Origin: Candidatus Marinacidobacterales bacterium
Lineage (GTDB): Bacteria > Acidobacteriota > Vicinamibacteria > Marinacidobacterales > DATDRI01
Direction of reading: 5' to 3'
Assembly: GCA_965219415.1 (NCBI GenBank)
Contig: CBDCNP010000002.1
Location: forward strand, 5,568,001 to 5,632,000
DNA length: 64,000 bases
The position numbers and the translations under genes are program-made. Under the pieces are notes generated by a model. That model did no database searches. It saw only the letters and a list, made by a program, of their open reading frames with translations, and was not told the DNA's origin. The first letter of the stretch is position 1; every line of letters begins with the position of its first letter. Below, piece by piece: positions 1,789 through 64,000 of the stretch.

Positions 1789-1932
1789 CAAGCCACCCTT
1801 GACGAGGTCCTTCGTTTTGTGGTCTTTTCCTTCATGGCGGTGTTTCCTTCTGTAGGCTCCTTCAGGCCGTGTTCGACAACGCGGAAGGTTACTCCACCTT
1901 TACTCTATTTCTACACCTTCTGAGGGTAGCTC
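1789..1932 (-). mobile_element. orphan left end and first codons of IS256 element
   Basis: diverged copy of 41808-41951 ending CACCTTCTGAGGGTAGCTC. Confidence 0.85.
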
Positions 1933-1933
1933 T

Positions 1934-3337
1934 ATGGACATCGTCCTTGCCTTTAGCGCGTTATGCATCCTGCTGGTGGTCGGCAAGATCCTGCGAGTTA
2001 CGATCCGTCTGTTCCAGAAGCTTTACCTGCCGGCATCGGTGATCGGTGGTCTGCTTGGGCTGGCGCTCGTGCAGACGATCGGTGGCTTCTTACCCGAAGC
2101 GACGACGGCGGGCTGGACTCGACTGCCAGGATTCCTCATCAACATCGTCTTTTCGGCCCTCTTCCTGGGAGTCTTCATTCCACCGATCAGACGCATCTGG
2201 GGGATTGCCGGGCCGCAGTTGGCGTACGGTCAAATCGTCGCCTGGGGGCAGTACGTCTTCGGCCTTGGGGTGGCAATCGTGCTTCTAACACCGGTTTTTG
2301 ACGTCCCGGGGGCCATCGGCACCATCATTCCGGTCGGCTTCGAGGGTGGGCACGGCACGGCCGCTGGTCTGGAGCCGGTCTTCGATGCCTATGCCTGGCC
2401 CGAGGGCAGGGACCTAGCCCTCACGTCGGCGACCTGCGGCGTCCTGTTTGCCATCATCGTCGGGATGGCGCTCATCAACTGGGCGGCGCGCCGGGGCTAC
2501 ACCCAGCAACTGAAGCGCATTGAGGACATGCCTGAGAGCAGTATCGTAGGCGTCTACGACCCAGCCGAACGGCCGAGTGCCGGGAGCCAGACCGTGTCGG
2601 CGGCGTCAATCGACAGCCTCAGCTTCCATCTCGCCATCATCGGTCTCGGTGTCTTCATTGGCTATCTGATCCACAGCGGCTTGGTGCGCGTTGAGCTCCT
2701 GGTGCGGCCTCCGAGCGCCGACGGTCGCGCCTTTTTCAACAGTTTCCCGCTCTTTCCGCTGTGCATGATCGGTGGTCTGGTGGTGCAGGTCTTTTTCGCC
2801 AACTTCACCAAGCGCAATCCGCTCGACCATCGCCTCATGCAGCGCCTCTCGGGCACCGCCATGGATTTCCTGGTGGTGGCTGCGATCTCGACCATCAATG
2901 TGAAGGTGGTGCTGGGGGGGCTCGTGCCCTTGGCGATCCTGGTCGCCGCCGGAGTGCTGTGGAACGTCTTCTGCGTGGTGTGGCTGGCGCGTCGCCTCTT
3001 GCCAGCGGATTCGTGGTTCGAGCGCTCGATCGCCGAGATGGGGCAATCGATGGGCGTCACCGCCACGGGCCTCCTGCTGTTGCGCGTCGTAGATCCCGAG
3101 GGCGACACGGACGCCACCTCGGCCTTCGGTTACAAGCAACTCATGCACGAGCCGTTCATGGGCGGCGGGCTGTGGACCAGTGCCGCCATTCCGCTGGCGC
3201 TGGCCTACAATCCGGTGTTGGTGCTCGGTATCAGCGCCGGGGCGGTAGCGCTCTGGTTGCTGGTATGGGCGCTGTTGTTTCGCGGTCGGCTCGGCCTCGG
3301 GCGAATCGGCACCGCCGGGCGTGGGGTAAGTGCCTAG
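1934..3337 (+). CDS. sodium/glutamate symporter family (GltS-like)
   Basis: about 12 TM segments; GFEGGHGTAAG and MGVTATG re-entrant loop motifs. Confidence 0.85.
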   Translation: MDIVLAFSALCILLVVGKILRVTIRLFQKLYLPASVIGGLLGLALVQTIGGFLPEATTAGWTRLPGFLINIVFSALFLGVFIPPIRRIWGIAGPQLAYGQIVAWGQYVFGLGVAIVLLTPVFDVPGAIGTIIPVGFEGGHGTAAGLEPVFDAYAWPEGRDLALTSATCGVLFAIIVGMALINWAARRGYTQQLKRIEDMPESSIVGVYDPAERPSAGSQTVSAASIDSLSFHLAIIGLGVFIGYLIHSGLVRVELLVRPPSADGRAFFNSFPLFPLCMIGGLVVQVFFANFTKRNPLDHRLMQRLSGTAMDFLVVAAISTINVKVVLGGLVPLAILVAAGVLWNVFCVVWLARRLLPADSWFERSIAEMGQSMGVTATGLLLLRVVDPEGDTDATSAFGYKQLMHEPFMGGGLWTSAAIPLALAYNPVLVLGISAGAVALWLLVWALLFRGRLGLGRIGTAGRGVSA

Positions 3338-3410
3338 TGGAGCAATCCCTAGGGAGCGCGCCCCCCAAGCCGACCTTATTCCTCATTCCTCCCTCTTTAG
3401 GCCGAGGTCT

Positions 3411-3463
3411 CAGCTGTTGATTTTTAGTCTGTTGCAAAAGGGCCGAGTTTTGGCACAGGACGG
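3411..3463 (-). repeat. orphan left end of rve element type B (CCGTCCTGTGCCAAAACTCGG)
   Basis: GGCCGAGTTTTGGCACAGGACGGG; same end precedes the transposase at 40030-40579. Confidence 0.85.
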
Positions 3464-3979
3464 GGTGCCGGTTGCAGCGATGTACCGGGCACAAGCGCGC
3501 CAACTTGCTCCAACATTGCCCGGCGCACGCACGCCGTGAGCTCCGGCGTGACTACAACCGGATCGTCTACGCCAAGAACGGGTTCGATGCTCGCAAAGCC
3601 TATGACGAGCTCGTCGCCAAGTGGACGCCTCTCGCGCCGGCCGTCGTCCGAAGCCTAGAGGAGGCCGGTAATCAGCTGCTGACCTTCTATGAATTCCCTC
3701 GTGCCATGTGGAAATCGATTCGAACGACCAATGCTCTGGAGAATCTCAACCGCGAATTTCGACGCCGGACGAAAACCCAAGCGTCGTTCTCCAGCGAGGA
3801 GTCCGCGGTCGCTTTGCTGTTTGGGCTTATCGCCTCTGGCCAGATTCAACTACGACGCATCGACGGCTACCAACGTCTGAGCGAGGTTCTCGAACACGCG
3901 GAGGTTACCGCCTGATATGATACTCTGATGACAGGGTGGAGGGCGCCGTTCTTTTTCCACGGACCTCGGGACACATCCC
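3464..3979 (+). pseudogene. IS256-family transposase 3' fragment (different element from the 40580 copy)
   Basis: QRCTGHKRAN and IRTTNALENLNREFRRRTK motifs; 5' end cut by the type B end. Confidence 0.8.
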
Positions 3980-6476: not shown

Positions 6477-6814
6477 CCAGAATCGAGGCCGGAGTGACCA
6501 CGAAATATAGCAGGCTAACACGTTCTGGTCTAGGTGTACCTGGACACCCTTGATGTCCTTACTTTTCTAGGATTGGGCCTCAACCTGGGTCCCGACCTCC
6601 TGCGGCTCTTCCCCGGCACACAGCACACGCTGAATCTGAGTCTTTCAACCAACGGTCACGATGCTCCCGCGCTGGCCGCCGCGTGGGGTCACTCTGGCGT
6701 GCCTTTTGCCCGCCCAATGCGGTCACCATGATCCCATGTCCCCAACTTCAAAGTGCTACAATTCTTGTCGGCAGGTCAATCGTGCCGACGGCACCAGCTG
6801 GCCCTCGCAACGTA

Positions 6815-9220
6815 ATGATGGAGAGACGAATCGGCACGCTTGTCCTGATGCTGCTAGCATTTGGCGCAGCTTGCAGCGACCCATCGAGAGAGCGCGCTGT
6901 TTCCCTTCTCGCTCCTTCTCAGCCTTCCATGGAAGTGGAGTTGGAAGGAAAGTCCCGAACAGCGTTTGACGGATCGAGGTGGGTGTCCCCGCTAAGGGTA
7001 CCACAGAACGCCGTTCTCCAGTTCTCGATGGCTGTATTGGGCACACCCAGTGCAGGCCTGCCTGCGACAGAGTTCCTGATCGAGATCGAAGCCGATAGCA
7101 AGCGGAGCCGCGTGTTCCGCGAGACCCTTGCTGCACAGGAGGGGAATCGTTGGAACGACCGCATGGTTGATCTCACTCCGTGGGAGGGGAGAGCGGTCTC
7201 GCTGGTATTCACGGCGCGGCCTGTGCTGGACGTCTCGGGCGCGGTGCATCGGCAGTCACTGGTTCCGGTTTGGGGCGATCCGGTTCTTGCGAGCGCACCT
7301 GCGAACGCCCGGTTGGGACAATCGGTCGAGCTCTTCAATGATTGGCATCGCCGACCCGACCGGATGGACTCAGTAGGCGATACGAAGTTCAGCCACGACC
7401 GCGGCTTCTATGAGACCCCTTTCGAAGTGATCCTCACCACCGCCACTCCCGGCGCAACGATCGTCTATACCACCGACGGCAGTAAGCCGAGCGTAAGTCA
7501 TGGAATCGTCGGCAACAAGGTTCTTGTGGATAAAACGACTGTCCTTCGGGCCGTGGCGTACAAGCCTGGTGCGAGGAGCACGAACGTTGACACCCATACC
7601 TATATCTTTCCGACCACGGTGAAGGACCAGGCGACCTTGCCATTCGATTATTCGGCTTCGTTTCGCTCCTTCAATATGGCTCCGTACGCAGATCTCGACA
7701 TCGGGATCGATCCCGATGTCGTGAATACGAGCAACCAGCGGGAGTTCGTGGAAGGACTGACGTCGATTCCCACCCTCTCCATTGTCATGGACATGGACCA
7801 TCTCTTTAATGAGAGCCAAGGGCTCTACTTTGGAAAGGGCCCACTGACCCGTCCCGCCTCGGTTGAGCTCCTCTATCCCAGTAAGTTTTCCCACTTCGAG
7901 GGCTTTCAGGTCGATTGCGGAGTTAGAAGGCATAGTTGGTCGCATCCCAAGGAAAAGAACTCGTTCCGCCTGGTCTTCAGCAAAGATTTCGGTCCAGGAA
8001 TGTTGAGATACCCTTTTTTCGAGAGCGCCGTGCATCATGCCGAATCTGCAGTGAAAGAGTTCAATACCATCGTTCTTCGGGCAGGGGGGGAAGAAAACTG
8101 GTCGAGAGGCAGGATCCTCGTCTGGCCGGGAGTGAGCGAATTGGCGGTCTATGTCCGCGACCAACACGCTCGAGACTCGCAGCTTTCTTTGAGCGGTACG
8201 GCTGCGCACGGCATTTTCGTGCATCTCTATCTGAACGGGATTTACTGGGGCGTATATAACGCGGTGGAGCGTCCAGAGCGACGTTTTCTCGCTTCGTACT
8301 ATGGCGGCGATCCGGCTGACTGGTTTGCTATCAACCATTCGGGCGTAGTCGGCAAGCCGAACCACCCGCGCTGGTATACCACCATGTACCGTTATGCGCG
8401 TGAGCATGACCTCTCGGAGCCCGCAAAATACCGGGAGATGAAAACCCTATTGAATACGGCCCAGTTTAGCGACTACATCCTGCTGAATTGGTTTTCCGGT
8501 ACGGGAGATTGGGGAAAACGAAATTGGTATGGAGGGATTCGGATTCACCCTCCCGGTGCCGGATTGTATTTCTGCTGGGATTCGGAGAATACCTACGGGC
8601 TTGCTGACAAAGTTGGGCATGCGGGGGCTTGGGTTCCACCCAAGTTCGTATCGGGCGGAACGTCCGTGCTACACCAACTATGGATGGCTTTGGCGGACAG
8701 CCCAGAGTTCCGGCTGGAGTTCGCGGATCGCGTCTATCGTGCCTGCTACAATGGCGGTCCCCTCGCGGACCATATAAACCAAACCAATTTTCGAAAGCTA
8801 GCGGACTACGTGGAAGCGGCGATGTTTTGTGAGTCGGCCCGCTGGGGCGATGCGGGCCCCGGAAGGGAGAATCGTCCCCGCACGCGGGATGTGCATTGGA
8901 AGCAGGCGCGGGACTATGTTCTAGACTTGATGGACGGAAACGTGGAAAGGTTCATTCGAGCGCTTCGGGACCATGATTACTATCCCACCCTCGACCCGCC
9001 GGTGTTCGAACGAGCTTCTGACAGCGTCACTATCCGACGCCCGGCGGGAGCGGAAAGGGTCTACTACACCCTTGATGGAAGCGACCCACGAAACCCCACA
9101 GCACACAGTTTCAGCGAAGCCATTTCGACAATTCCTTTCTCTCCCAATCTCAAGGGACGTTCACGGCGGGGCGACGAGTGGAGTGCTCTGAACGAATACA
9201 GGACTTGGGAACGAGATTAA
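6815..9220 (+). CDS. CotH-kinase family protein with chitobiase/FN3-associated domains, probable lipoprotein
   Basis: signal ending FGAAC; FSHDRGFY...IVYTTDGSKP repeat also at C-terminus (YYTLDGSDP); FVHLYLNGIYWGVYNAVER, DWGKRN and WDSE motifs. Confidence 0.75.
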   Translation: MMERRIGTLVLMLLAFGAACSDPSRERAVSLLAPSQPSMEVELEGKSRTAFDGSRWVSPLRVPQNAVLQFSMAVLGTPSAGLPATEFLIEIEADSKRSRVFRETLAAQEGNRWNDRMVDLTPWEGRAVSLVFTARPVLDVSGAVHRQSLVPVWGDPVLASAPANARLGQSVELFNDWHRRPDRMDSVGDTKFSHDRGFYETPFEVILTTATPGATIVYTTDGSKPSVSHGIVGNKVLVDKTTVLRAVAYKPGARSTNVDTHTYIFPTTVKDQATLPFDYSASFRSFNMAPYADLDIGIDPDVVNTSNQREFVEGLTSIPTLSIVMDMDHLFNESQGLYFGKGPLTRPASVELLYPSKFSHFEGFQVDCGVRRHSWSHPKEKNSFRLVFSKDFGPGMLRYPFFESAVHHAESAVKEFNTIVLRAGGEENWSRGRILVWPGVSELAVYVRDQHARDSQLSLSGTAAHGIFVHLYLNGIYWGVYNAVERPERRFLASYYGGDPADWFAINHSGVVGKPNHPRWYTTMYRYAREHDLSEPAKYREMKTLLNTAQFSDYILLNWFSGTGDWGKRNWYGGIRIHPPGAGLYFCWDSENTYGLADKVGHAGAWVPPKFVSGGTSVLHQLWMALADSPEFRLEFADRVYRACYNGGPLADHINQTNFRKLADYVEAAMFCESARWGDAGPGRENRPRTRDVHWKQARDYVLDLMDGNVERFIRALRDHDYYPTLDPPVFERASDSVTIRRPAGAERVYYTLDGSDPRNPTAHSFSEAISTIPFSPNLKGRSRRGDEWSALNEYRTWERD

Positions 9221-9270
9221 CCGTACAGCGATTCGATATCGGCGAGGTCGGCTTTAGTTGTGGCGGGGGC

Positions 9271-10469
9271 GGTGCTTCCGCCATCAAGTGTTGCTACGCG
9301 GCTGCGGGCAGTGGTACAGGTGCGGAAGAGAGCGGGTTGCGCGCCCCAGTGAGCAGGAAAACCTCGATCCGCGACCACAAAGGAATCGTCGTCGCCAAGA
9401 AGATGTCTCGAAAGGTGAGCCGTCGCGTGGTGAGACCGGCCTGCATAGCCGGAGTTCGGATCTCACGTCCGAACTTCAGAGCTCCGTGCGGTCGGACGAA
9501 GTTGTAATAGCAACGGAGCAACTCCAGGTGCTCATCGAGCCTCTCCGTCGAGCGAGCGTGGGAAAGCGTTCGTCTCGAAAGGTATGCCGAGCTTTGCCGG
9601 ATGGTCAGATTCAACCGCTCGATGAATGACGTGTTCAATGTTGAGGAGTCCTCGGAGTTATTGAGCGCGTCATCAAATCGCCACGCGGCTCCGTGCAGCG
9701 CTCTGCGTTCGACCTTGATGATACGATCGTTCCTGCGCGTTTTGAGGACTTGGCCGTAGAGACACGCTGGCCCGAAGAAGCGACGGATGACCTTCTGGTA
9801 GAATTCGAATCCATCCGTAACGATCAAGGGAAGACCCTCGAAATTCATCCGCCTCGAAAGGTCGTGAAACAGAGCGTGAGTGTTCCGGTAGCTTCGCCTT
9901 CCCGTCACCGTCGATGGCCAGAGCCGAGACCAGACCTCGATCGTAACGAAGACCCAACTCGGCGTCTTCTTGTTGCCCGCGAACGTGCGAATCTCGTCGG
10001 CTTGAAGCTCTTCGGCAGCGAAGCCAGCGATCCTTGTGTGGTTGAATCGACGACACACTTGGGCTGCCTTCTCAAGCCAGCGGGCGACGGTGTTCCAGGC
10101 AATCCCTTCGATCCGGGAAATCGCGGAAATGCTGACACCCTCGACTCTGAGAGCGATGACCCCGTCGAAAGTAGCTCTTCGATGTTGGAGACGGTAGTAG
10201 GGCGTGCCTTTCGTCGAGGAGAACGTCTTTCCGCACTCGCCGCACCGGTATCGACGGCGTTTCCCAGACTTGGTTCGGTAGAATCCGTGGCGAACGATGT
10301 TTCCGGAACTGACTTTGCCCCGCAACGCACATGCGGGATTGAGACATCTGCTATTCTTCACTTCGGATTGCCCTTACGATGAGAGAACTGTGTCTTCGGA
10401 ATTCTGGCTCAAACTCTAGCACGCGAGCGGGTTACGCGGCGGCCACCAACACTTGATGGCGGAAGCACC
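9271..10469 (-). mobile_element. IS1-family element, intact; transposase 9294-10361
   Basis: perfect 23-bp TIR GGTGCTTCCGCCATCAAGTGTTG; zinc ribbon CLNPAC..CGEC, HTH, ADE/VTDG/IERLN DDE, YNFVRPH, TPAMQAGL; no target duplication. Confidence 0.9.
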
Positions 10470-10990
10470 CAAAGGCGACCAGGTCTCCTGCCGCCGCGAT
10501 GAGACGGTGGGAGCCACCTTCGATGGCAAGCGACTCACCTTGTCAGACGGGGCGAGCTTTCAGGTGAAATAGCAAAGCAACGTTCCGAGCTCCACACAGT
10601 ACTCGGTATACGACCTCCGTCGTGGCTCCGCCGGGCCAGTCGGTGCCTCCGCCGACAATCCACTTGACTGGCGTCAGCGAACCGCTTAGGATCTGGGGCT
10701 TGATCGGGGAGGGGCCTCGATGCTGAGGCTCTTTCGCTCGCCGGCTGAAAGCGCCACGGTGGGTCAAAACCGATATCGCTACTTTCACCCCCTGGTTCGG
10801 CCGTGAGGCTCCTCGATCGGAGTCATATGGGCGCGCTGTTATCCTTTAGTAAGGTCTTCTCACTGGGGTCGTCTTCCCGTTGCCCTGAGCTGCCTTGTTC
10901 ATACATGCGAGAGAAGGCGTACGCCCGGACCCATTCGCAGCAAACCTTCGTTTCCCTTCAAACTCGGGCGATCCCCGAAGGAGGTTCGGC

Positions 10991-13900
10991 ATGAGGTTTT
11001 TCTACGTTCGAATTCCTATTCTTTTCGCTGTGCTGCTGCTAATGGCAGCACCTCTGGTTTCGGCGCAAGGTATTACCGGTGTTATCGCCGGGACGGTCGC
11101 CGACCAAGGTGGTGCGGTGTTACCTGGTGCGAGTCTGACCGCCAGTAGCCCGGCGCTGGTTCGCGGCAGCGTCACGGTGACGACCGACGCCCAGGGCGCG
11201 TTTCGGATTCCGGGTGTTCAGGCCGGAACCTACCAGGCGATTGTGGGAGCTCTCCGGCTTCGCGACTGAGACGGTGACGGACATCATCGTCACGGTCGGT
11301 ACGACGGTCCGCGTGCAGGTCATCCTCCAACTCGCGGGAGTGGAGGAGACGATCACGGTCATGGCGGACTCGGCACCGGTGCGGGTCAAGGAATCCGGTC
11401 TCGGCGTTCCCATCGACAACACGACCATCGATTCGATTCCGCTCAAGGGCCGTGAGTTCATCGATCTCGTCGAGCTCGTACCGGGTGTGGCCAAGCGTCC
11501 CTCGGCTTCAGACCAGGGGACCTCGTTCACCGTTTTCGGAGAGCGGGCGATCTCGAATTCGTTTCTGATCGACGGCAACGACGCCAACGACCTCTGGACG
11601 CGTGAGGCGGCGGAGTTTTTCGTCCAGGACGCGATCCAAGAGTTCAAGGTCTATCTGGCGGGGTACCCGGCGGAGTACGGCCGGGCTTCTGGTGCGGTGA
11701 CGAACATCGTCACGCGCTCTGGAACGAACCAGGTCGACGCACGGGGCTTCTTCTTCATCCGTAACGATTCGCTGAACTCCTCGAACGTGGAGGGGCAAGA
11801 CCCTCAGGCGCTCGAGCGCATTGAGGTGGGCGGCACCTTGGGCGGTCCCATAAAGTCGGACAAGTCCTTCTTCTTCGATGCGTTTCAGTATGTGAAGGAA
11901 GACCGGGGGTCCAACTTGGACCAGTCGATCCTGACACCGATTCTGCTGTCCGGCTATTTCGCCCCTGCCACGGGGGGGGAGCCTCTGGACGCGGTCCCTC
12001 AGGAAAAGAGGATCACAAACCTCTTCAAGTTCGATCACCGGTTCAATGCCCAGAATCAACTGTTCGTGACCTGGAACCTGAACCGCCGTACGGATAGTGA
12101 CTTCCAACCGGCCGCCAGCGAATTGTTCGCCGGGCCGCCTCCCGGGACGATTACGCTTCCTTCGATCGCTTCGGACATCGACCGGAACACCAAAAGCATC
12201 AACGGACGCCACACCGCTTTTTTCAGCGATACCTCGTTCTTGGAATCCTCGCTCCGCTGGTGGAAGAGCGACTACAAGGAGAACACCGAAAAACCAGCCT
12301 CCGCCGAGTCGCTCGCTCCAATCTTATTCGTTCCCAACTTCCAGATATTCATTTCCAACGCTGGCATTGGCGTCGTCGATCGCGAACAACAGCGGTGGCA
12401 ATGGCAAGAGCATTTCTCCTATTTCGCGGACACCGAAGGGACGGGCACGCACGCCTTTAAGTTTGGACTGGATCTGGATCACGTGTCGATCGATCATTTC
12501 TTCAGTCCGCCCGATTTGATCATCATGGGCAACACCGCCCTCGAGAGCAACTTCGAAAGGCTTGGCTACGACATCAGCGTGCAGATAGGCGGTTCCGTCA
12601 TCGTGGACGGCCAGGGGCCGAACAACGACCGCGCCATCGGCAGCACGGACAATTGGGCGGCGTACGCTCAGGATTCGTGGGAGCCGAAACCTGGGATAAC
12701 GCTTAACCTCGGCGTGCGCTGGGATTACGCGAGCCTTTTCGGGAGCGGTGGCGTTGCGTGGCGGACGGGAATTGCATGGGACTTGAAGAACCAAGGAAGG
12801 ACCATACTCCGTGCCGGCTGGGGTCGCTTCTATGATGTGAGTATTGCCGAGGTGATCGCATTTACGCCGGAGTTGGGCGGGATCCAGTTCGCCGATCTGG
12901 GGGTGCAGAGCATTCCCCGGGGGGCTTCCTTCTACAACAATCCGGCACTAGGCGCGTTCGGGCCCTTGCAGGCGTCGAGCAGCCGGGTGCTCACGAACCC
13001 GTCGCTTTTCGAGCAAATCATGCCAGTTGGCTTTACGCTCACTTCACCGGGCACGTTCACCATCAAGCGCGATGGGGTGACCATGGAAGACTCGGTGATC
13101 AACGGACAGGGCAATCCCTACGTCATCTACGACCTTCTCGGCATCAAGGTCGACGATCCGACGCTTCCCCCAGTGCTGACTTACGACAGCATTCCCGAGC
13201 TCACCGGGGGGAGGCTCTCACCGGAAGAAGCGGTGGCCATTCTCAATGACGCCTTTCCCCACCCGTTCGGCCTAGGCGAGCAGTTCACGTTTCTCGATCA
13301 GAGAGGGGACGCCAGTATCGTCAACAACCGTCCGTTGGCGTTCTTGTTCCGGCAGCTCGACGTCGAGGTGACGCGCATCACGACGCTATCGGACGACCAT
13401 ACACTGCCATACACCGATGCCTTGAACTTCGGAGTCGAGCAGGCCCTCACCGACGACTTCACCATCGACGCCGAGGTTCACATCCGACGTTCGAAGAACC
13501 TTCTGTCGCGTCGGGTGGTGAACCTGCTCCCCGCGCCCATCGCGGGAAGCTGCACCCTGAACACAATCGATGGTCCCGGGCCTTGTCTCAGTGAGATCGA
13601 GAACCTCGGGTTCCTGGATACCAATGCTTTTACCCTCGCTTTGCAGAAGCGCTTCCGCCAGAACTACAACTTCTTGCTGAGCTATACGTTCACTGACGCG
13701 ACCGACAACTTCTCGACGTTGAGAGTTCCCCCGCGCGGAGCGGAGATCAGCTTTTTGTTCAACAACTTTCCGGAACGCGACATCGGCCGGAGCCTGAACG
13801 CGCCTGAGCACGTCATGGTCTTCAGCGGTCTCTATCGTCTGCCGGCTGGCTTCGACATTTCGGGTGTGTTGAACTACCAGTCGGGACGCCCGTTCAATGC

Positions 13901-14234: not shown

Positions 14235-14317
14235 CAGGCTAGGGAGGTTTAGGTAGTCTTACGTCTGAGAAAGGGGGGGAGCAAGCTCGCTCCTCCCGAA
14301 ATCAATCGCAGCTCCGA

Positions 14318-14359: not shown

Positions 14360-14375
14360 GTAAAGGCTCGTACCA

Positions 14376-26612: not shown

Positions 26613-26615
26613 CGG

Positions 26616-48305: not shown

Positions 48306-48336
48306 CAATCGAGTAGCTCGTCGCTCCCGGTTCGAG

Positions 48337-54265: not shown

Positions 54266-55456
54266 GAAATTAAGTGTTGGCGGCCAGCCCCTAACCGGTC
54301 TGCGTGCTATAGTTTGGACCAGAATTCCGAAGACACAGTTCTCTCATCGTCAGGGCCGAGCCAAAGTGAAGAATCGCAGATGTCTCAATCTCGCATGTCC
54401 GTTGCGGGGCAAAGTCAGTTCCGGAAACATCGTTCGCCACGGATTCTACCGAACCAGGTCCGGGAAACGCCGTCGATACCGGTGCGGCGAGTGCGGAAAG
54501 ACGTTCTCCTCGACGAAAGGCACGCCCTACTACCGTCTCCAACATCGAAGAGCTACTTTCGATGGGGTCATCGCTCTCAGAGTCGAGGGTGTCAGCATTT
54601 CCTCGATTTCCCGGATCAAAGGGATTGCCTGGAACACCGTCGCCCGCTGGCTCGAGAAGGCAGCCCAAGTGTGTCGTCGATTCAATCACAGGAGGATCGC
54701 TAGCTTCGCTGCCGAAGAGCTTCAAGCCGACGAGATTCGCACGTTCGCGGGCAACAAGAAGACACCGAGTTGGGTCTTCGTTACAATCGAAGTCTGGTCT
54801 CGGCTCTGGCCATCGACGGTGACGGGAAGGCGAAGCTACCGGAACACTCACGCTCTGTTTCGCGACCTTTCGAGACGGATGAATTTCGAGCGTCTTCCCT
54901 TGATCGTCACGGATGGATTCGAATTCTACCAGAAGGTCATCCGTCGCTTCTTCGGTCCAGCGTGTCTCTACGGCCAGGTCCTAAAAACGCGCAGGAACGA
55001 TCGCATCATCAAGGTCGAACGGAGAGCGCTGCACGGAGCCGCGTGGCGATTCGAAGACGCGCTCAATAACTCCGAGGACTCCTCGACATTGAACACGTCG
55101 TTCATCGAGCGGTTGAATCTGACCATCCGGCAAAGCTTGGCATACCTTTCGAGACGAACGCTTTCCCACGCTCGCTCGACGGAGAGGCTCGATGAGCATC
55201 TGGAGTTGTTCCGTTGCTATTACAACTTCGTCCGACCGCACGGAGCTCTGAAGTTCGGACGTGAGATCCGAACTCCGGCTATGCAGGCTGGTCTGACGAC
55301 GCGACGGCTCACCTTTCGAGACATCTTCTTGGCGACGACGATTCCTTTGTGGTCGCGGATCGAGGTTTTCGTGCTCAGTAGGGCGCGCAACCCGGTCTCT
55401 TCCGCACCTGTACCACTGCCCGCAGCCGCGTAGCAACACTTGATGGCGGAAGCACC
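54266..55456 (+). mobile_element. IS1-family element, intact transposase 54366-55433, left TIR clipped
   Basis: homolog of 9271-10469; an opposing TIR ends at 54265. Confidence 0.9.
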
Positions 55457-56213: not shown

Positions 56214-56306
56214 CCTCTCGGGTGACGAAACACGTTGGGCCTCGGCCCGCGGAATGCTTCGCCGTCCCACGGTCGTTTTCGACCGGTTGAATCTAGCGCC
56301 AAAGTG

Positions 56307-57053
56307 ATGACCGTCGCAGATATCCAAAAAGCTCACTTCGACACCATCCAGCGTCGCTATGAAGCTCACTACGATGACACCTGTAGCCGGCGCTACCGGG
56401 ACCGGTTCTTTCACGAGCGGATGTTTCGTGGGGTCGAACTCGCCGGCAAGACCGTTCTCGAAGCGATGTGCGGGAGTGGACAGACTACGTCCTTTCTCCT
56501 TTCGAAGGGCGCAACCGTCACCGGGCTCGATGTCTCGGAAGAGAGCATCGCGTCCTTCCGCGCGCGTTGGCCCTCGTGCCGGGCGATTCGTGCGTCTGTG
56601 CTCGAATCAAATCTCGAGAGTGGAGCGTTCGATCTGATCGTCGTCGTCGGAGGCTTGCACCATCTTCATCCGCACATTTCGGCGGCGATCGTCGAGTTCC
56701 ACCGTCTCCTCAAGCCGGCCGGTTTTTTCTGCTTCGTCGAACCGCACCGGGGCTCTTTTCCCGATTGGGTACGCCGACGATGGTACCGGCGAGACGATCT
56801 CTTTGCGAAGAATGAAAATTCTGTCGATCTGGACTCGATGAAACGAGAATTCGCCGACTGCTTCGACTTCTTGCTCGAAGACTACCTCGGAAACGTGGCC
56901 TACTTGCTGGTGTTGAACTCAATGGTGTTTCGCGTTCCCTTGAAGCTCAAGCCGCTGTACACTCCCCCATTGATGGTCGTGGAGTCGGCTCTGGTGCCCC
57001 TTCAGACGAGGCTCCTGTCTTGCTTTGCGGTCAGTCGATGGCACAAGCGTTGA
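56307..57053 (+). CDS. class I SAM-dependent methyltransferase
   Basis: VLEAMCGSG, GLDVS, FDLIV..GLHH and LLKPAG motifs. Confidence 0.88.
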   Translation: MTVADIQKAHFDTIQRRYEAHYDDTCSRRYRDRFFHERMFRGVELAGKTVLEAMCGSGQTTSFLLSKGATVTGLDVSEESIASFRARWPSCRAIRASVLESNLESGAFDLIVVVGGLHHLHPHISAAIVEFHRLLKPAGFFCFVEPHRGSFPDWVRRRWYRRDDLFAKNENSVDLDSMKREFADCFDFLLEDYLGNVAYLLVLNSMVFRVPLKLKPLYTPPLMVVESALVPLQTRLLSCFAVSRWHKR

Positions 57054-57130
57054 GGAAGACGTCGCGATCCCAATAGCATGTCGACGACGGGTTGAAGCGT
57101 CGCCTCAATTGCATTTGGTGACTTCCCGCG

Positions 57131-58504
57131 GAGCTCTTGTCAATAGGTGTGTAAAAAAGTTCAGGCAGCAGCAACCTTCGACGACTCCGTTACCCTGTCT
57201 CCATCTTCAAATCGAACGCCCAGGTGAACCTCTCGCATCAGCTCCGGTGCGTTGAGCCGGCGAAAATTCTTCTCCGCAACCAGAAGCAGTTTGAAGATTG
57301 TCGCAGTGGCGGACTCGATTTTCTTGAACCTTTTGGCCGCATCCGTTCTCAATCTCAGTGCAGCGAACGGTGATTCCACGACGTTGCTCGTGCGAAGGTG
57401 TTGCACAGTGAGGCTTGGGAAAGGAATAGAAGCTGACCATCCGCTCCCAGTCCTCGTCGAGCACGTGCGCGGCCCCCGGAAGACCCTTGCGCAAGCACCA
57501 ATCCTGGAACTTTGGCCTTCTTCGTCTCGCACTCCTGCAGGCTGGTGGCGTAGGGGATCGCCGTCAACAGCGGCTTGGCCTGCGCCTGGTCCCTTTTCGG
57601 AATCCGGTCCAGTACGTTGAGGATTCGGTGGTTCCAGCACCGCTGCTCCTCAGCTTCTGGAAATACGTTTCGGGTCGCGGCCCAGATGCCGAGATGACCG
57701 TCACCGATCACCAAACGGGGACATCTCAGACCGCGCTTCTTCAGTCTCCGTAGCAGCGACGACCATGACGCTTCGGATTCTCGATGCCCGGCCTCCAGCG
57801 TCAGGACGATTTTCGTCCCGTCGGACAGGCCACCAACCGCAACTAGCACCGCCGCCTTGTCCTTCTCAAGGCCGGCCTTCACGTACACGCCATCTACCCA
57901 CAGGGACACGAGCTCGAGTTCGTCCAGTGGGCGAGCTAGCCACTGCTCGTACTCTCCCTGCCATTTCTGTTTCAGCCGCGACACCGTGCTGGGAGAAAGT
58001 GGAGCGTCCTCCCCTAGAAGCCCGCGGAGCGCCAAATCGAAATCTCCGTGAGCTAATCCATGCAGGTACAGCTCCGGAATCAACTCGCTCACCGTTTCGC
58101 TCCGACGCTTGAACAGCGGAAGCACTCGACTTTCGAACCTCTCCTCCACGTCCCGTACTCTCGGCCGGCGAACCGTCACCGTGCCCACGCTCATCGTCAG
58201 CTTCCGAGGCTTACCGTATCCATTTCGATAGCCCGCCGTTGTGTCCACGGGCTTCCGTCTCTCCGATTTCTCACGCCCGAGAAGCTCCGTGACTTCGGCT
58301 ACCATCAGCTCCTGCACCCAATCCTGGATCTCGAGCCTCGCCCACTTCTCCAGCGACTCCCAAGCCACCCTTGACGAGCTCCGTCGTCTTGTGGTCTTTT
58401 CCTTCATGGCGGTGTCTCCTTCCGTTGGCCCCTTCAGGCCGTGTTTCGTGACGCGGAAGGTTACTCCGCCTTTACTTTATTTCCACACCTTCTGAGGGTA
58501 GCTC
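57131..58504 (-). mobile_element. IS256-family element with 9-bp target duplication CTTCCCGCG; transposase frameshifted
   Basis: direct repeat at 57122-57130 and 58505-58513; near-identical to 40580-41951. Confidence 0.93.
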
Positions 58505-58724
58505 CTTCCCGCGAACACGTATCGACCGGAGACCGGCGGCTTGCAGGTCAAGAAGTTAGCGCAGCTCGTCGAGCACAGGGTTTCGCGGCCTGGGCTCAAC
58601 GATCGAGATCGGGACCGAAGCAGCGTCCGAGGAACGCGCCATCAACAAGAATTCACCGCGCGGCCAGCGCAGTACCAACAATGCCCAGACCGCAAACGGT
58701 GCTTGCTCGTTTCCGAACAACCTG

Positions 58725-59037
58725 CTTGAGTTCGTAATTCTCTCGACGTCGTTTCTCTAACCGTGTCGCCGGAAAGCCGCTTCTTTCCCGCCTCCAAGAA
58801 ATCTTTGCTCCACCGATAGTACAGATTCGATGCGATCCCTTCGCGGCGGCATAGTTCCTTGATGCTTTGCTCGCTGCGTAGTCCCTCCAGCACGATGCGA
58901 ATCTTCTCCGCAGATGTAAATCGGCGGCGGGTCTTGCGACGGATCTCGCGTACCGTCCGCCTCAGAGGATTGTTCCTCCCTTATTCATCGGACACTCTCT
59001 CCTGGAATTTCAATCCCTCATAGTGTCCATTAGCTCA
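58725..59037 (-). mobile_element. IS3-family left end and orfA remnant
   Basis: EKIRIVLEGLRSEQSIKELCRREGIASNLYYRWSKDFLEAG; end TGAGCTAATGGACACT. Confidence 0.75.
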
Positions 59038-59096
59038 TCCCCCTCCGTAGCGAAGATTCGATTTCCAGCCGCAGTTCTGGGTTAGAATAGTGCCCC

Positions 59097-60266
59097 GTGG
59101 CCGACGAACAGCAGCGGAAGCCAGAGCTTTCTATTGTAATGCCCTGCCTCAACGAAGCAGAAACGCTTGCGAGTTGCATCGAAAAGGCGTCGCGTTCCCT
59201 TCGTGACAACGGCATCGACGGCGAGATCATCATCGCCGACAACGGCAGTTCCGACGGGTCGGTTGAGATTGCCCAACGCCTCGGGGCACGCGTCGTTTAC
59301 GCTGAGACTCGGGGTTACGGAAGCGCCCTGCTGAGCGGTATCCGAGCTGCATCCGGTACCTTCATCATCACGAGTGATACAGACGGCAGCCATGACCTCA
59401 CGCGTCTCATGCCGTTCGTCGACAAACTCCGCGACGGCTACGACCTGGTGGTCGGCAACCGATTCAAAGGCGGCATCGAGCCCGGTGCGATGCCGTTTCT
59501 TCACCGCTATCTCGGGAATCCGGTGCTGACGACGATCGGCCGTATGCTGTTCCCGAATCCATGTCGCGACTTCCACTGCGGCCTTCGGGGTTTCCAAAAA
59601 GACGCTGTTCTCAGGATGGATCTCCAGACGACCGGAATGGAGTTTGCTTCGGAAATGATCGTCAAAGCAACCCTTCTCGACATGCGCGTCACCGAGGTCC
59701 CAACAACGATGTCGCCGGATGGCCGCAGCCGGCCTCCGCATCTCCGCACCTGGAGCGACGGCTGGCGTCACTTGAGGTTTCTCCTCCTATACAGCCCTCG
59801 GTGGCTGTTCCTCTACCCTGGCCTCGCGCTCGCGGCGCTAGGCCTAGGGCTCGGGGCTTGGGTCTTGCTAGGACCCCAAACCATCGGCACGGTGACATTC
59901 GACGTCTACACCTTGCTCTATGCAGTGGCGGCAATCTCCATCGGCTATCAGTCCATCGCCTTTGGTTTCTTCACTAAGATTTTCGCCATCCAGGAAGGAC
60001 TGATGCCGAAGGACCCGCGCCTCGATCGGGTCTTCCGCTACGTCACCCTCGAAGTCGGTCTGAGTGTCGGCGCGACGCTAGTGTTGGTGGGTCTGGCAGG
60101 AGTGGCGTGGGCTCTGAGTGATTTGGGAGCGCGCTCGTTCGGCGTTCTGCAATCCACCCCCACGCTCAGAGTTATCATCTCGGCCTCGCTCGCGCTCACG
60201 TTGGGCTTTCAGATCGTGCTCAGCAGCTTTTTCCTGAGCGTCCTTGGGCTCCGCCGCCACCTCTGA
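59097..60266 (+). CDS. GT2 glycosyltransferase (polyprenol-phosphate type) with C-terminal TM helices
   Basis: SIVMPCLNEA, IADNGSSDGS, DTDGSH and DFHCGLRGF motifs. Confidence 0.9.
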   Translation: MADEQQRKPELSIVMPCLNEAETLASCIEKASRSLRDNGIDGEIIIADNGSSDGSVEIAQRLGARVVYAETRGYGSALLSGIRAASGTFIITSDTDGSHDLTRLMPFVDKLRDGYDLVVGNRFKGGIEPGAMPFLHRYLGNPVLTTIGRMLFPNPCRDFHCGLRGFQKDAVLRMDLQTTGMEFASEMIVKATLLDMRVTEVPTTMSPDGRSRPPHLRTWSDGWRHLRFLLLYSPRWLFLYPGLALAALGLGLGAWVLLGPQTIGTVTFDVYTLLYAVAAISIGYQSIAFGFFTKIFAIQEGLMPKDPRLDRVFRYVTLEVGLSVGATLVLVGLAGVAWALSDLGARSFGVLQSTPTLRVIISASLALTLGFQIVLSSFFLSVLGLRRHL

Positions 60267-60317
60267 TCGGATCCCAAAGTGCTAGAGTTTCCAACGAGTC
60301 CATGAAACGACTTTGGG

Positions 60318-60733
60318 TTGTGCTCCGCAAAAAGTCGATCCAGCGTTGATTGCGCCGTTTAGACCTGCTACGATCGGCTACTTCGCGACGAACGACCCGA
60401 CGCCGCCACCGGCGTCTAATAAACGTGGAGGAGCTCTCTCTTGCGACTGTTCTCGAATATCCGGCCTATTGTCCTGAACGCCGTCGCGTTCGCTCGCAAC
60501 CTGTGCCGCTCGCGCAGCGCCCTCGCCGCAGCAACCCGTGGCACCATATCGAGGCCATCGAGTTTGCGACGCTCGAATGGGTGGATTGGTTCAACAACTG
60601 GCAGGTCCTCACGTCGATCGGCGACGTGCCGCCGACGGAGTACGAACAACAGTACTATCTGACGCAGGAGGCTCCATTCACGGTGGCCTCAGTCAACTAA
60701 TGAGCTCTCCTCTCAAGAACCCGGGGGAGCCAC
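60318..60733 (+). mobile_element. type E left end (60318-60533) fused to IS3 right end (60534-60733)
   Basis: EFATLEWVDWFNN...IGDVPPTEYE; end AAGAACCCGGGGAGCCAC. Confidence 0.75.
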
Positions 60734-61602
60734 TAAGCGAGAGAAGCGCTTGTGTGCTCTGTGGAGGCGCCCCCGAGCAGCACTCGGTCGTCTACCGCAA
60801 GTGGGGATATCCGATCTTGAAATGCCGAGCCTGTGGTCTTGGCTCCACTTTGGTCAGTAGCGACTTTGAGCCCTTCTATCAGTACAATCGGGACTACTTT
60901 CACGGCTCCAGCGGGTATGCAGACGGCTCCGGCGGGTATGCAGACTACTCCGGCAGCGAACGGGTACTTCGGGCGGAGTTTCGGCGCTCCCTTTCCGCGC
61001 TGCGCCGACATGGGTGTGAAGCGGGTCGTCTTCTGGAGATTGGCTGTGCGTACGGCTTTTTTCTCTCCGAAGCCCAGGGCTATTTCGACTGTCACGGGAT
61101 CGAAATCGCCAAGGACGCAGTCGACTTTTGCCGGTCAAGGGGCCTCGAAGTCCATCGAGGCACGCCAGAGAAAGAACTGCTGGATCGCCTCGGCCGCTTC
61201 GACGCAGTTGTTCTCATGGACGTAATCGAACATCTTCCCGCCCCTCTAGATACTCTCAGGTTTGCTACACGCCACTTGAGGCAGGGTGGTGCGGTGATGA
61301 TATCGACAGGAGATTGGGATTCTTACCTTTCACGTTTGATGGGACGGCACTGGCGACTCATGACTCCACCCGAGCACCTGTTTTTCTTCTCGCTCAATAC
61401 CCTCGCGAGAATGCTTACAAAGGTGGGCTTGCGCATCGTGCACACGGTCCATCCCTGGAAGTGGGTACCATTGGGATTGATAGCCCATCAATTAGGCCAG
61501 CGTGTCGGGGCGAGAGTGAGGCTCCTAGAAAAACCTCAAGGGCTCGCTGTTCCCATCAATCTATTTGATGCTGTCCGTGTCATAGCAGTGAAGGAGCGGT
61601 AA
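60700..61602 (+). CDS. class I SAM methyltransferase with N-terminal zinc motif
   Basis: CVLC..CRACG; LLEIGCAYG; DVIEHL; PPEHLFFF; first codons lie in IS3 sequence. Confidence 0.8.
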   Translation: MSSPLKNPGEPLSERSACVLCGGAPEQHSVVYRKWGYPILKCRACGLGSTLVSSDFEPFYQYNRDYFHGSSGYADGSGGYADYSGSERVLRAEFRRSLSALRRHGCEAGRLLEIGCAYGFFLSEAQGYFDCHGIEIAKDAVDFCRSRGLEVHRGTPEKELLDRLGRFDAVVLMDVIEHLPAPLDTLRFATRHLRQGGAVMISTGDWDSYLSRLMGRHWRLMTPPEHLFFFSLNTLARMLTKVGLRIVHTVHPWKWVPLGLIAHQLGQRVGARVRLLEKPQGLAVPINLFDAVRVIAVKER

Positions 61603-61745: not shown

Positions 61746-61939
61746 CCCTGTTCGTTGAACACGACCCCGTTCCAAAGATCGGTTATCGCTCGGACGCTGA
61801 CGACTGGCCTAAAATGCCTGATTGTTGGGGAAAATCGACGATATTCGGCCCTCAATGTTAATCTTTGTGCCTCAAATAGCCGGAGGAGGATGTTAGGAGG
61901 AAGGGCAGGAAAATCAAGGCAGGAACTGCAGGAACACAG

Positions 61940-62105
61940 GGTGCTTGCGCTGTTTACTGTTGGTGATATGCACGCATCCCTTTGCAGAAGAGGCGCTTAC
62001 GCTCCATTTAGCGCGCAGCGAAGGTCACGAGCGTTATTTTGGCTGTAATTAAATGCACCGTAACGTCTTAGCATCATCTCACCAACACTTAATGGCGGAA
62101 GCACC
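61940..62105 (+). repeat. ~165-bp IS1-type MITE
   Basis: same family as 17204-17369. Confidence 0.9.
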
Positions 62106-62150
62106 GGTTTATGGCGTGAAGGTTCACCGTAGTGTATTCTGCCTGGCGCA

Positions 62151-63539
62151 ATGTGGTTTACTTCCGGCACACTCCGCCCGGGGTACGACTGCTATGTAAT
62201 CGGCTCTGGCCCGGCGGGCATCACGCTCGCCCTAGAGCTGGCCAAGGCAAATAAGAAGGTACTGCTCTTTGAGTCCGGCACTGCAATCGATGCGCGGGCC
62301 GACATGCCAAACGCCATCAACCAAGGACACCTCCCGGACGGCTGGTGGGATGAACACTCTATACGCACACTCGGTGGCACCTCAAAGGTCTGGTCAGGCT
62401 GGTGTGTTACGCTGATGGAACGGGATTTCGATAACCCGGCCGTCGGCGTTCGCTGGCCGATTACTCGCCCCGAGTTGGTGCCGTACTATCGGCGCGCAGC
62501 TCGAGTCCTGGACCGAGACACCTCTATCGTCGATGTCGAGACACGCCTGATGCCGGGGTTCGTCTACCGACCGTTCTCAAGAGGTGCTCCTACCCGCTTC
62601 GGACTCAAGTATTTCGATGTACTGGAGAAATCCTCGACGATTCACGTTGCGCTCGGATCCTCGGTGGTTGGCCTCGACGCCGATACGTCTCGCTCCGCGG
62701 TTCGGACGCTGACGTATTTTCATCATTCTTCAAGCACCACGCACCAGCTTGCCATCGATCCCGCACAGCCGGTCGTCCTCGCGGGCGGCGGCATCAGCAA
62801 CGCGCAACTGCTACTTCAGCCTCGCTCGGACGGTGCGGTCCCGGTCGGCAACGAGAGCGACCAGGCAGGGAAGTTCCTGATGGAGCATCCGCATTTCAGG
62901 CGTGTGGCCGAACTCGTGCTTGACGAAGACCTAAACCTGCAACCTAGGCCCGCTGCCTTTGGGGGAGCCACCCATGCGATGGTGCCGGACGATGCCCTGA
63001 CGATGCAGCACGGGCTATTCGGGTGCAGTGTGGACTGTCAGGACCAAACCACCGATCATCCAATGGTCGAGTATCTGTCCAGGGAGCATGGGAAGCCCTT
63101 CTATCACTACATCAGCACTGTACGCTCCGAAATGTTGCCCTCTGCCAGTAACCATGTGTTCCTAACCGGGGAACGCGACGCCGCAGGGTTCTACCGGCCC
63201 AGCGTCCGATGTGTCTTCAACGCCGGGGACTTCCTCAACGCGGAGACGACGTTGCGGCTCCTCGGAGAATCGCTGATAGAGTCGAAGAAGGGCCGGGTAC
63301 GTATTCACAATAGTGTCCTATACCGGTGGGCGGACGGTGGCGGGCACATCATGGGAACGACCAGAATGGGCACGAGTCGGTTGGATTCGGTGGTCGATCG
63401 AGACTGCCGGGTGCACGGCTACCGCAACCTGTTCGTGGCTGGCTCGTCCGTGTTTCCCACCGGCGGGTACGCGAACCCAACGCTGACGATTGTCGCGTTG
63501 TCGCTGCGACTGGCTGACACTCTCGCGACGTCACGGTGA
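62151..63539 (+). CDS. GMC family flavin oxidoreductase
   Basis: VIGSGPAG, LGGTS..W, GKFLMEH, HIMGTTRMG and NPTLTI motifs. Confidence 0.9.
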   Translation: MWFTSGTLRPGYDCYVIGSGPAGITLALELAKANKKVLLFESGTAIDARADMPNAINQGHLPDGWWDEHSIRTLGGTSKVWSGWCVTLMERDFDNPAVGVRWPITRPELVPYYRRAARVLDRDTSIVDVETRLMPGFVYRPFSRGAPTRFGLKYFDVLEKSSTIHVALGSSVVGLDADTSRSAVRTLTYFHHSSSTTHQLAIDPAQPVVLAGGGISNAQLLLQPRSDGAVPVGNESDQAGKFLMEHPHFRRVAELVLDEDLNLQPRPAAFGGATHAMVPDDALTMQHGLFGCSVDCQDQTTDHPMVEYLSREHGKPFYHYISTVRSEMLPSASNHVFLTGERDAAGFYRPSVRCVFNAGDFLNAETTLRLLGESLIESKKGRVRIHNSVLYRWADGGGHIMGTTRMGTSRLDSVVDRDCRVHGYRNLFVAGSSVFPTGGYANPTLTIVALSLRLADTLATSR

Positions 63540-64000
63540 TGGTGCCCGACATGACACGCCGCATCTCACGACGGACATTCGTGATGGGGTTCGGCGGCGG
63601 TGCGGCTTCCGCAGCGCTCGTTTGGGGACTCTGGGATTCTAGGCGTTGGCCGCGAACGCCCGGCGAAGAACATCCGGTCATCGCGGGGTGTTGTGCCTAC
63701 GCCGAGTACGATGGTTGGCTGGTCACGACCGAGGACAAAAGACGCCTTCCATTTTCACTGGCCTACACTAGCGGCTGGTACCCGGAGGAAACAGATGCGG
63801 AATCGGCGTGGCGATGGACCCATAAGACGGCAACGCTGTCATTTCTGAACCCGAAAGCGGACGCAACGTTCAGCCTCGACTACGCCGCACGGGCGAATCA
63901 GGCGGTCACGGTCAGCGTCGGCGGTCAACTGCTGCAGCAAGTAGTCGCCGAGGCATCCGGTCGCCGCCGCCGCCGCCGTATTCCTATCCCCGCAGCGGCG
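63539..64000 (+). CDS. hypothetical exported/membrane protein, runs off the window
   Basis: TGATG overlap with the GMC stop; open for 154 codons; SRRTFVMG Tat-like signal; GWYPEE..WRWT motif. Confidence 0.65.
   Translation, partial: MVPDMTRRISRRTFVMGFGGGAASAALVWGLWDSRRWPRTPGEEHPVIAGCCAYAEYDGWLVTTEDKRRLPFSLAYTSGWYPEETDAESAWRWTHKTATLSFLNPKADATFSLDYAARANQAVTVSVGGQLLQQVVAEASGRRRRRRIPIPAAA

Follow-up and report, generated by a model that had tools for sequence, protein, structure and literature searches.

How a bacterial chromosome comes to carry a row of apparently unrelated genes, each cut close to its borders by the ends of insertion sequences (ISs), is the question raised by a 64,000-nt stretch from Candidatus Marinacidobacterales bacterium (Acidobacteriota; assembly GCA_965219415.1, contig CBDCNP010000002.1), here called the window. 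The assembly comprises 8.05 Mb in three contigs (C1, C2 and C3; 59% G+C), and the window is C3:5568001-5632000. The original prediction, made from the letters of the window, described an integron-like array of unrelated single genes captured and trimmed by ISs and by miniature inverted-repeat transposable elements (MITEs). We consider it likely that the window is an ordinary sample of a megabase-scale accessory compartment, saturated with ISs and MITEs, in a sponge-type acidobacterial chromosome, shaped by insertion, truncation, duplication, transfer and selection.

In the proposed scheme, at least eight IS families and their miniature derivatives would insert repeatedly, often into each other's ends, and element ends would become the sites of truncations and segmental duplications. 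Multi-kb mosaic pieces would pass between co-resident bacteria of different genera and families, and selection would discard the rearrangements that break useful genes, so that the surviving breakpoints would lie in short spacers beside genes. The outcome would be gene- or operon-sized modules with IS ends near their borders, for which no dedicated capture machinery would be needed. In this scheme, we infer the order of events, the role of selection and the route of DNA between cells, whereas the map of elements, the lack of duplications throughout the element family, the distance statistics, the duplicated genes and the sharing of cargo between genomes with differing neighbours are observed.

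The closest public relatives of one window gene are found in long-read metagenome-assembled genomes (MAGs) labelled Candidatus Marinacidobacterales and Vicinamibacterales; its farther relatives come from MAGs of several phyla, many with sponge-metagenome names, and sponge metagenomes are among the public runs that contain a unique stretch of the window. Repeat borders drawn from exact 24-letter words (24-mers) missed diverged fragments, and BLAST-based maps were used instead; sharp element termini were set by pile-ups of alignment ends, and families were named by profile scans (Pfam and NCBIfam). When the window was compared with its own genome by megablast, 3,494 alignments resulted, and in the BLAST map high-copy repeats of the genome, from at least eight IS and MITE families, occupy 34.5% of the window in 45 intervals. 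By 24-mer counts in 100-kb bins C3 is bimodal: most bins up to approximately 2.3 Mb contain 1-8% repeated words, and many bins from 2.3 Mb to the end contain 24-41%. With 39% repeated words, the window ranks 15th among 492 overlapping 64-kb bins. It is typical of the Mb-scale IS-rich compartments of C3, not a discrete cassette array.

The elements of the window include a 1.2-kb IS1-family element (three full copies and one fragment), a 166-bp MITE with an identical terminal repeat (MITE-A), IS256 (two full copies and three fragments), IS21, one IS110-family element in two copies together with a fragment of a second IS110-family element, two IS481/IS3-type elements that differ from each other and are both accompanied by solo ends and MITE-like derivatives (approximately 280 occurrences for one of the ends), an ISL3 fragment, and at least three more end types (IR3, IR4 and a 43-copy end). 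Between them lie approximately 17 low-copy blocks. Single genes form the GltS-like, CotH-like, M28, fxsA, serine hydrolase, SPFH and M20 blocks, and two blocks are gene fragments (rtcB' and MMPL', the prime marking truncation). The multi-gene blocks are TonB-dependent receptor (TBDR)-permease-amidohydrolase', DUF2442/DUF4160, MerR-TIR-orf447, LolA-DUF1302-MpaB-MMPL-ispH', methyltransferase-GT2-methyltransferase, and GMC with the next open reading frame (ORF). Several units are conserved multi-gene blocks rather than unrelated single genes, at least four of them with 3-6 genes.

Recent duplication is a property of the same compartments. Of the non-IS ORFs in 200-kb bins rich in ISs, 15-35% (25 of 102 and 19 of 56 in two examples) are matched by a paralogue at an identity of 95% or higher; most core bins reach only 0-3%. 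In the window, further copies were found for M20 (99.5% identity), for MMPL-ispH (99.95%, 26 kb away), for MpaB (98.7%, on C2), for fxsA (99.7%, on C1) and for DUF2442/DUF4160 (99-100% in amino acids), and the fxsA unit occurs in five copies, each joined in the same way to a 131-nt IR3-type MITE.

Two further observations concern gene content. The number of non-IS ORFs per 200 kb falls from approximately 160-180 in nearly IS-free stretches to 90-110 in IS-rich ones, and in the IS-rich stretches of C3 up to one third of the non-IS ORFs are recent duplicates. Copies of core genes at 82-86% identity (TBDR, permease and M28) raised the idea of a decaying second genome copy from a congener, which was rejected because IS-rich bins are not enriched over core bins in paralogues of 70-95% identity.

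Gene borders and truncated genes

The original prediction listed short distances between gene borders and IS termini, and its measurements are for the most part right. A 149-nt fragment of the IS256 right end (1784..1932, plus strand; element positions 1226-1374 of 1374 bp) has its outer end 1 nt from the ATG of the GltS-like sodium/glutamate symporter module (1934..3337, plus strand; Pfam Glt_symporter, 4.5e-09). The stop codons of the beta-lactamase-fold serine hydrolase (36884..38407, minus strand; Pfam Beta-lactamase, 1.1e-62; NCBIfam matches all far below cut-off) and of the M20 amidohydrolase module (51968..53296, minus strand; three genome copies whose outer neighbours differ) lie 28 and 26 nt from IR3-type ends, the former belonging to the element at 36667..36855 (plus strand). 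The ATG of the GMC oxidoreductase, which with the following ORF spans 62151..64000 (plus strand), is 45 nt from the end of a 166-bp MITE-A copy (61940..62105, plus strand).

Other values held in part. For GT2, the stop side agrees (52 nt to the repeat at 60319), and the approximately 60 nt given for the start side was measured as 590 nt to the IS256 end, with an IS3-type OrfA remnant (58645-58980) in between whose end could not be defined. The 3 nt given for the stop of fxsA (26743..27126, minus strand) applies only to a shifted frame; the frame matched by Pfam FxsA stops at 26743-26745, 130 nt from position 26613, where the 131-nt IR3-type MITE (26483-26613) ends. The SPFH/slipin gene (39230..39826, minus strand; in a five-copy unit at 39192-40032) was said to lie about 30 nt from an IS terminus on both sides, which is right on the stop side (24 nt) and wrong on the start side (197 nt for the 198-aa ORF). 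The mismatch arises because the window copy carries a premature stop; a start-side distance of approximately 23-30 nt is seen only for the 257-aa form of the copy at C3:3.529 Mb.

As a null expectation, distances on one side were taken from a random point in a length-weighted ORF spacer in the IS-poor parts of the genome (at least 2,379 spacers), which gave a median of 123-128 nt and 16% of values at 30 nt or less. The 31 curated distances of the window have a median of 117 nt against 128 nt for the null (one-sided Mann-Whitney p=0.23), and 5 of the 31 are at most 10 nt, compared with 6% expected (p=0.04, uncorrected); three of these five involve hypothetical ORFs. With the gene and IS calls of the original prediction for GT2, SPFH and fxsA, the median of 33 distances is 66 nt (p=0.043). 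Genome-wide, after identical junctions were collapsed, 635 junctions have a median of 104 nt, and 20% of them lie within 30 nt, versus 16% at random. The window list also holds distances of 204, 284, 306, 332, 419, 575, 911 and 936 nt. The short values that had been put forward are a selected subset and do not make the distances clearly shorter than chance: at best, elements lie marginally closer to genes than the lengths of ordinary spacers would lead one to expect. Strong non-randomness is seen elsewhere, in that only 15-36% of the termini with unique flanks lie inside ORFs, though ORFs cover 86-89% of the genome.

IR3 is the only end type that is clearly close to genes. Its terminus, ...GGACACGACG, stands at the serine hydrolase and M20 stops, and the elements ending ...GTTCGTTTGTATTTTTGGACACGACG (26587-26613, 36667-36855 and 51773-51941) favour sites just 3' of stop codons. 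Across the genome, 20 of 48 unique IR3 junctions lie at most 30 nt from a gene, and stop-side junctions (35) outnumber start-side ones (13). This end type accounts for the short distances at the serine hydrolase, M20 and fxsA. IR3-type ends are mostly solo; a full-length IS with such ends was sought among approximately 200 termini, which form only 23 inward-facing pairs with no consistent size above 260 nt, and a parent IS did not emerge.

Truncation of genes exactly at element ends is real and frequent. The ispH gene of the window encodes 267 aa and breaks off at an IS1-type end. Its counterpart in a Vicinamibacterales relative, where the gene order is the same, has 346 aa, and the source genome has a full copy at C3:5644662-5645630, 26 kb downstream. 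The rtcB fragment (18655..19094, minus strand), which corresponds to Pfam positions 236-398 of 426, is enclosed by an IR3-type end and an IS1-related end; it occurs four times in the genome and also in two other genomes (G002 and G003). Two more copies of MMPL-ispH, located 26-41 kb beyond the window on its downstream side, have their start 1 nt from a MITE-A, and their missing MMPL 5' parts are found nowhere adjacent. At ispH, at rtcB and at MMPL beside MITE-A, IS and MITE termini thus mark truncations without the missing part on the far side. The earlier claim that interrupted genes do not resume stands for ispH and rtcB; the third gene named, an amidohydrolase whose ORF runs into the IS1-family copy at 15964, is called from a weak N-terminal match (Amidohydro_3, E=0.013).

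Cargo modules in other genomes

Comparison with related genomes, of which G001 is from the same genus as the source genome and G003, G016 and G018 are from other genera and families, revealed the same cargo with different neighbours, as the original prediction had anticipated. The GltS, CotH and GMC modules recur at 90-99% identity across genera and families, with breakpoints 0-66 nt from the gene borders. The baseline identity of rpoB is 92% for G001, 89% for G002, 82% for G003, and 79% for both G016 and G018. The pieces at 96-99% identity are therefore recent transfers.

G003, G016 and G018 also have the 1-nt junction between the IS256 end and the GltS ATG, at 96% identity; with the source, this makes four genomes of three genera. 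The IS256 stump measures 149 nt in the window, 205 nt in G003, 118 nt in G016 and 150 nt in G018, and is cut by different neighbours in each; after the GltS stop, the next element follows at 66 nt in the window, at 29 nt in G003 and G018, and at 3 nt in G016. The stump contains GAGGG 7 nt upstream of the ATG, and the IS256 end may supply the ribosome-binding site of GltS and perhaps its transcription signals.

The CotH-kinase-like module (6744..9270, plus strand; ORF 6683-9220; Pfam CotH and CHB_HEX_C_1) was found at 97-99% identity in G001, G003 and G018 (99% in G003). On either side the homology ends at positions that agree within approximately 10 nt, which downstream means 42-50 nt past the stop codon. 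None of the four upstream flanks or the four downstream flanks is related to another, and in G018 an IS end abuts the border exactly. All the flanks tested are multi-copy elements except the 114-nt right flank in G001, which has no match in G000. The GMC module recurs at 90-92% identity at six other places; at all seven loci, which belong to four genomes, the breakpoints fall 22-56 nt before the ATG.

Larger pieces are shared as well. With its MITE junctions, the segment 33805-37131 recurs at 99% identity in G018; G003, G016 and G018 all have the LolA-to-ispH block at 98-99%, and IS256 itself is 99% identical in more than 40 copies in G003. The TBDR-permease block (81-85% identity; same gene order in G001 at 81-82%) and the M28 peptidase gene (84-85% to copies in G001, in G002 and on C1) are older extra copies of genus-level genes. 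The methyltransferase-GT2-methyltransferase block had no match at E<=1e-100 in the five closest genomes.

A mosaic of this kind could be produced by assembly, if repeats had joined co-resident genomes into chimeras within the MAG. The estimated contamination of 8.45%, the presence of the same IS and modules at 96-99% identity in co-occurring genomes, and the depth in public runs, which for the LolA-MMPL block exceeds that for the unique stretch of GT2 and the second methyltransferase by a factor of 10-100, would fit this explanation, which we nevertheless regard as very improbable. Against it stands above all the recurrence of composite junctions: the IS256-end/GltS junction recurs in three independently assembled genomes, 33805-37131 recurs with its MITEs in G018, and 43560-46684 and 46700-51559 recur in G003. 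The elements, at 0.1-2.6 kb, are shorter than typical long reads. Contigs from four public runs of two studies match the unique cargo without mismatch and stop 26-30 letters inside each flanking repeat; only the junction 60531/60532 is bridged, by two records (85 and 32 letters).

The same comparisons bear on dedicated, integron-like capture, in which a recombinase would collect promoterless cassettes. The modules do resemble those of integron arrays in being small, mostly one gene with short flanks, and in standing in differing contexts, and 24 of the 28 automatically called non-IS ORFs of the window lie on the plus strand, versus 78 of 146 in the surrounding 290 kb. By blocks, however, the orientations are mixed (11 plus and 5 minus), and several units are multi-gene. 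Unlike integron cassettes, the modules have no nucleotide-fixed borders: the aligned borders of GMC, CotH and GltS differ by 0-66 nt between genomes and reveal no motif in common that would mark a recombination site. A genome-wide search for Phage_integrase (PF00589) gave 13 matches, none of them in the window and the nearest at C3:5479237, approximately 89 kb away, and a Pfam scan of 129 window ORFs detected no tyrosine or serine recombinase. The integron-like machinery of the original prediction is thus not supported, although trimming by IS is correct as a process; we hold capture of this kind to be improbable in the extreme.

Target duplications and exchange at element ends

The original prediction stated, correctly, that no IS1-family or MITE-A copy of the window has a target duplication, and read this as a sign of local adjacent deletions. 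Members of the IS1 family typically generate target duplications of 8-9 bp. Genome-wide, 29 of 31 full IS1-family copies and 148 of 149 full MITE-A copies lack one, and together 177 of 180 copies have no duplication of any length from 2 to 9 bp. The ends of the IS1-family element are invariant from the first base, and no length of 2-9 is enriched at them, even after the assumed ends were moved by as many as 3 nt. Other elements of this genome do have duplications: 6 bp in all six IS21 copies and 7-9 bp in 18 of 31 IS256 copies. The absence of duplications is therefore a genome-wide trait of the element itself and no evidence of adjacent deletions in the window; since the MITEs also insert without duplication, intramolecular events alone cannot explain it.

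Duplication-free insertion with sharp ends, as seen for the IS1-family element (9271-10469 in the window) and MITE-A (17204-17369), is unusual for a DDE-type transposase. The best NCBIfam model for the 394-aa transposase is that of the IS1 family (NF033558, scores of 88.6 and 84.5 bits against a cut-off of 100), and the Pfam matches, DDE_Tnp_IS1 and rve_3, are weak.

In a rival explanation, the IS1-family element and its MITE would act like IS26, excising units of one element plus adjacent DNA and inserting them beside existing copies, or exchanging flanks exactly at their ends, and would thereby build up arrays of cargo between copies of the element. Besides the lack of duplications at sharply defined ends, several arrangements agree with it. 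Two IS1-family copies of the same orientation (9271..10469, 1199 bp, and 15964..17164, both on the minus strand; terminal repeat GGTGCTTCCGCCATCAAGTG, no target duplication at the first) bracket the block of a TBDR-like gene, a cytosine/purine permease and the amidohydrolase start cut by the second copy (10479..15963, plus strand), cargo is cut precisely at MITE-A or IS1 ends, the GMC flank meets MITE-A and a different, related end at one nucleotide, and IS1-family neighbours within 10 kb are direct in nine cases and inverted in three. IS26 arrays, according to PMC7986276, also lack flanking repeats and form translocatable units; they resemble the window further in that many element copies, often duplication-free, are interleaved with unrelated cargo, elements lie in or next to elements, and cargo is duplicated and spread between replicons and hosts. 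The orientation bias of the IS1 copies is not significant, however (p=0.15), and MITE-A neighbours are direct in 39 cases and inverted in 31. Different elements occupy the same nucleotide in only 2-3 of 115 flank groups, at least six element families form module borders, and the transposase is IS1-like rather than IS6. The outer flanks of the copies at 9271 and 15964 share no repeat that would mark a composite transposon, and the TBDR block between them was not found elsewhere as a unit in 20 relatives. The window also differs from IS26 arrays in that its borders come from at least eight families and MITEs, in showing no significant direct-repeat arrangement, and in belonging to Mb-sized chromosomal compartments rather than a resistance island. 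An IS26-like action is on balance unlikely. Its extended form, in which the IS1-family lineage, its MITE, present in 150-230 copies, and related ends would join or exchange flanks exactly at termini, as in the targeted conservative reaction of IS26, is likewise unlikely. Combined with transfer between cells, it would make Mb-scale compartments an exchange pool from which single genes with flanks of approximately 20-60 nt would spread among genera and families as cassettes in effect, with no integrase.

Several observations weigh against repeated insertion and transfer under selection as the full account. The CotH borders coincide within approximately 10 nt in four genomes, more tightly than a model of random breakpoints would give. 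At the GMC flank, the MITE-A end of the window and an IR4-type end in two paralogous copies are placed at the identical nucleotide; such mixed-element junctions are rare. On the calls of the original prediction, 6 of 33 distances are at most 10 nt, against 6% expected (p=0.014, uncorrected). The long-range linkage across IS copies is provided by the assembly alone, and a search of the whole genome for conjugation genes of the VirB4 family gave no match.

The three cases described earlier as clean insertions were confirmed. IS21 (22988..25573, minus strand; IstA and IstB) lies within an IS1-related end and is flanked by the 6-bp duplication AAGCAC; for the IS256 copy at 57131-58504 the duplication measures 9 bp; and both copies of the IS110-family element, called an IS1111 pair, occupy the canonical site of the family. 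These two inverted copies (27310..31470; with the surrounding repeat, 27310-28850 and 29930-31470) are each inserted at position 20 of the IS1-family terminal repeat, and between them lie a MITE-A copy (28996-29159) and an IS1 fragment (29206-30007). The element (27330-28772 and its inverted twin) scores 302.6 bits with NF033542 (cut-off 140), in keeping with a DEDD transposase, and it inserts site-specifically and has no terminal inverted repeats of its own. Among 27 full copies, all those listed have the IS1 repeat GGTGCTTCCGCCATCAAGTG on the left, and only 1 of the 19 listed for the right flank fails to resume the repeat with TGTTGCTACG; the IS1 repeat reads ...CATCAAGTG/TTGCTACG. NCBIfam labels the IS110 family as RNA-guided. 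Some elements of the IS1111 group target attC sites or the terminal repeats of other elements. According to PMC11187229, IS4321 and IS5075 of this group target the repeats of the Tn21 family. The element described here is similarly placed at one position of another element's terminal repeat, whereas its target is an IS1-family or MITE end, in Acidobacteriota. Nesting is frequent: 30-38% of the element termini abut another repeat.

Outside the window, at C3:97221-103037, two IS256 copies lie 3 kb apart in inverted orientation. Neither has its own duplication, and the 8-mer AGAATTCC is common to their opposite flanks, a hallmark of inversion mediated by an IS.

Other blocks of the window and relation to known systems

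The block at 43560..51551 (plus strand) contains an MMPL fragment, LolA-like, DUF1302, MpaB and MMPL genes, and the truncated ispH on the minus strand. A 341-nt inverted duplication (43560-43900/46700-47040) brackets LolA-DUF1302; in G003 this segment is single-copy, and the block halves that it joins are oriented differently relative to each other, suggestive of an inversion. Proteins 70-89% identical to the LolA-like protein occur in MAGs that carry the labels Latescibacterota, Gemmatimonadota, Nitrospirales, Opitutales, Arenicellales and others, many of which come from sponge studies; this suggests a gene pool common to several phyla. In the TBDR block, the receptor gene is split into overlapping frames (10895-11269 and 11214-14234) and is contiguous in a paralogue of 84% identity at C3:478-482 kb; the split is probably a frameshift or a sequencing error.

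The genes at 32757..35870 (plus strand) encode MerR-like, TIR-domain and 447-aa proteins. The latter two (33719-35870; the 447-aa protein with weak NACHT/NPHP3_N matches) have a diverged counterpart pair at C2:9555-11399 with 40% and 30% identity, and they may form a defence pair. Defence-system models applied to MerR, TIR, orf447, SPFH and DUF2442/DUF4160 gave one weak match (mad1, E=1.6e-4), and the TIR pair had no PADLOC match. The M28 peptidase gene (19458..21206, plus strand) stops 7 nt from an IS110-family fragment. The methyltransferase-GT2-methyltransferase block (56235..61602, plus strand) is interrupted by two simple insertions, the IS256 copy at 57131-58504 and a 213-nt element (60319-60531).

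Further elements include an IS256 copy without duplication (40580..41951, minus strand) inside an IS481/IS3-type element (40030-40579), a second IS481/IS3-type element (42409..43558, minus strand), and an IS1-family copy with a truncated left repeat (54264..55456, plus strand) that abuts another IS1-type end. An element of unknown kind of approximately 0.8 kb (17861-18621), bearing a 4HBT thioesterase-like ORF, has approximately 8-10 copies in the genome, and several copies at 97-98% identity occur in G003, G016 and G018. Neither Rfam at the gathering threshold nor a tRNA scan gave a match in the window.

IS-expanded genomes of host-associated bacteria are known for IS-mediated deletions, inversions and pseudogenes. 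The window shares with them a high IS load, gene fragments, IS-bounded rearrangements and a host-associated community; it differs in that the load is confined to compartments beside 2-3 Mb that are nearly IS-free, that the genome is large (8 Mb), and that gene-sized modules are common to different families at 96-99% identity. Abundant transposases in symbionts of sponges are noted in PMC11410982. Literature searches on sponge symbionts and insertion sequences returned no paper on IS-bounded gene modules in sponge Acidobacteriota, which does not prove that none exists. The locus is a well-resolved example of an already known kind, the IS-driven mosaic; its features of note are the duplication-free IS1-family lineage with its MITE, the modules of gene size common to different families, and the targeting of the IS1 terminal repeat by an IS110-family element.

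For annotation, these results advise caution on two points: a missing target duplication alone is no evidence of deletion, and ordinary spacer lengths already predict short distances between ISs and genes. IS-mediated mosaics are familiar from resistance plasmids and host-restricted pathogens, and here one is seen at the scale of a chromosome in an uncultured, environmental, host-associated phylum. Within one genome, a nearly IS-free core coexists with compartments where recent duplicates make up as much as a third of the ordinary genes. Within one community, pieces the size of genes are passed from one bacterial family to another, and cassette-like modularity can arise without integron machinery.

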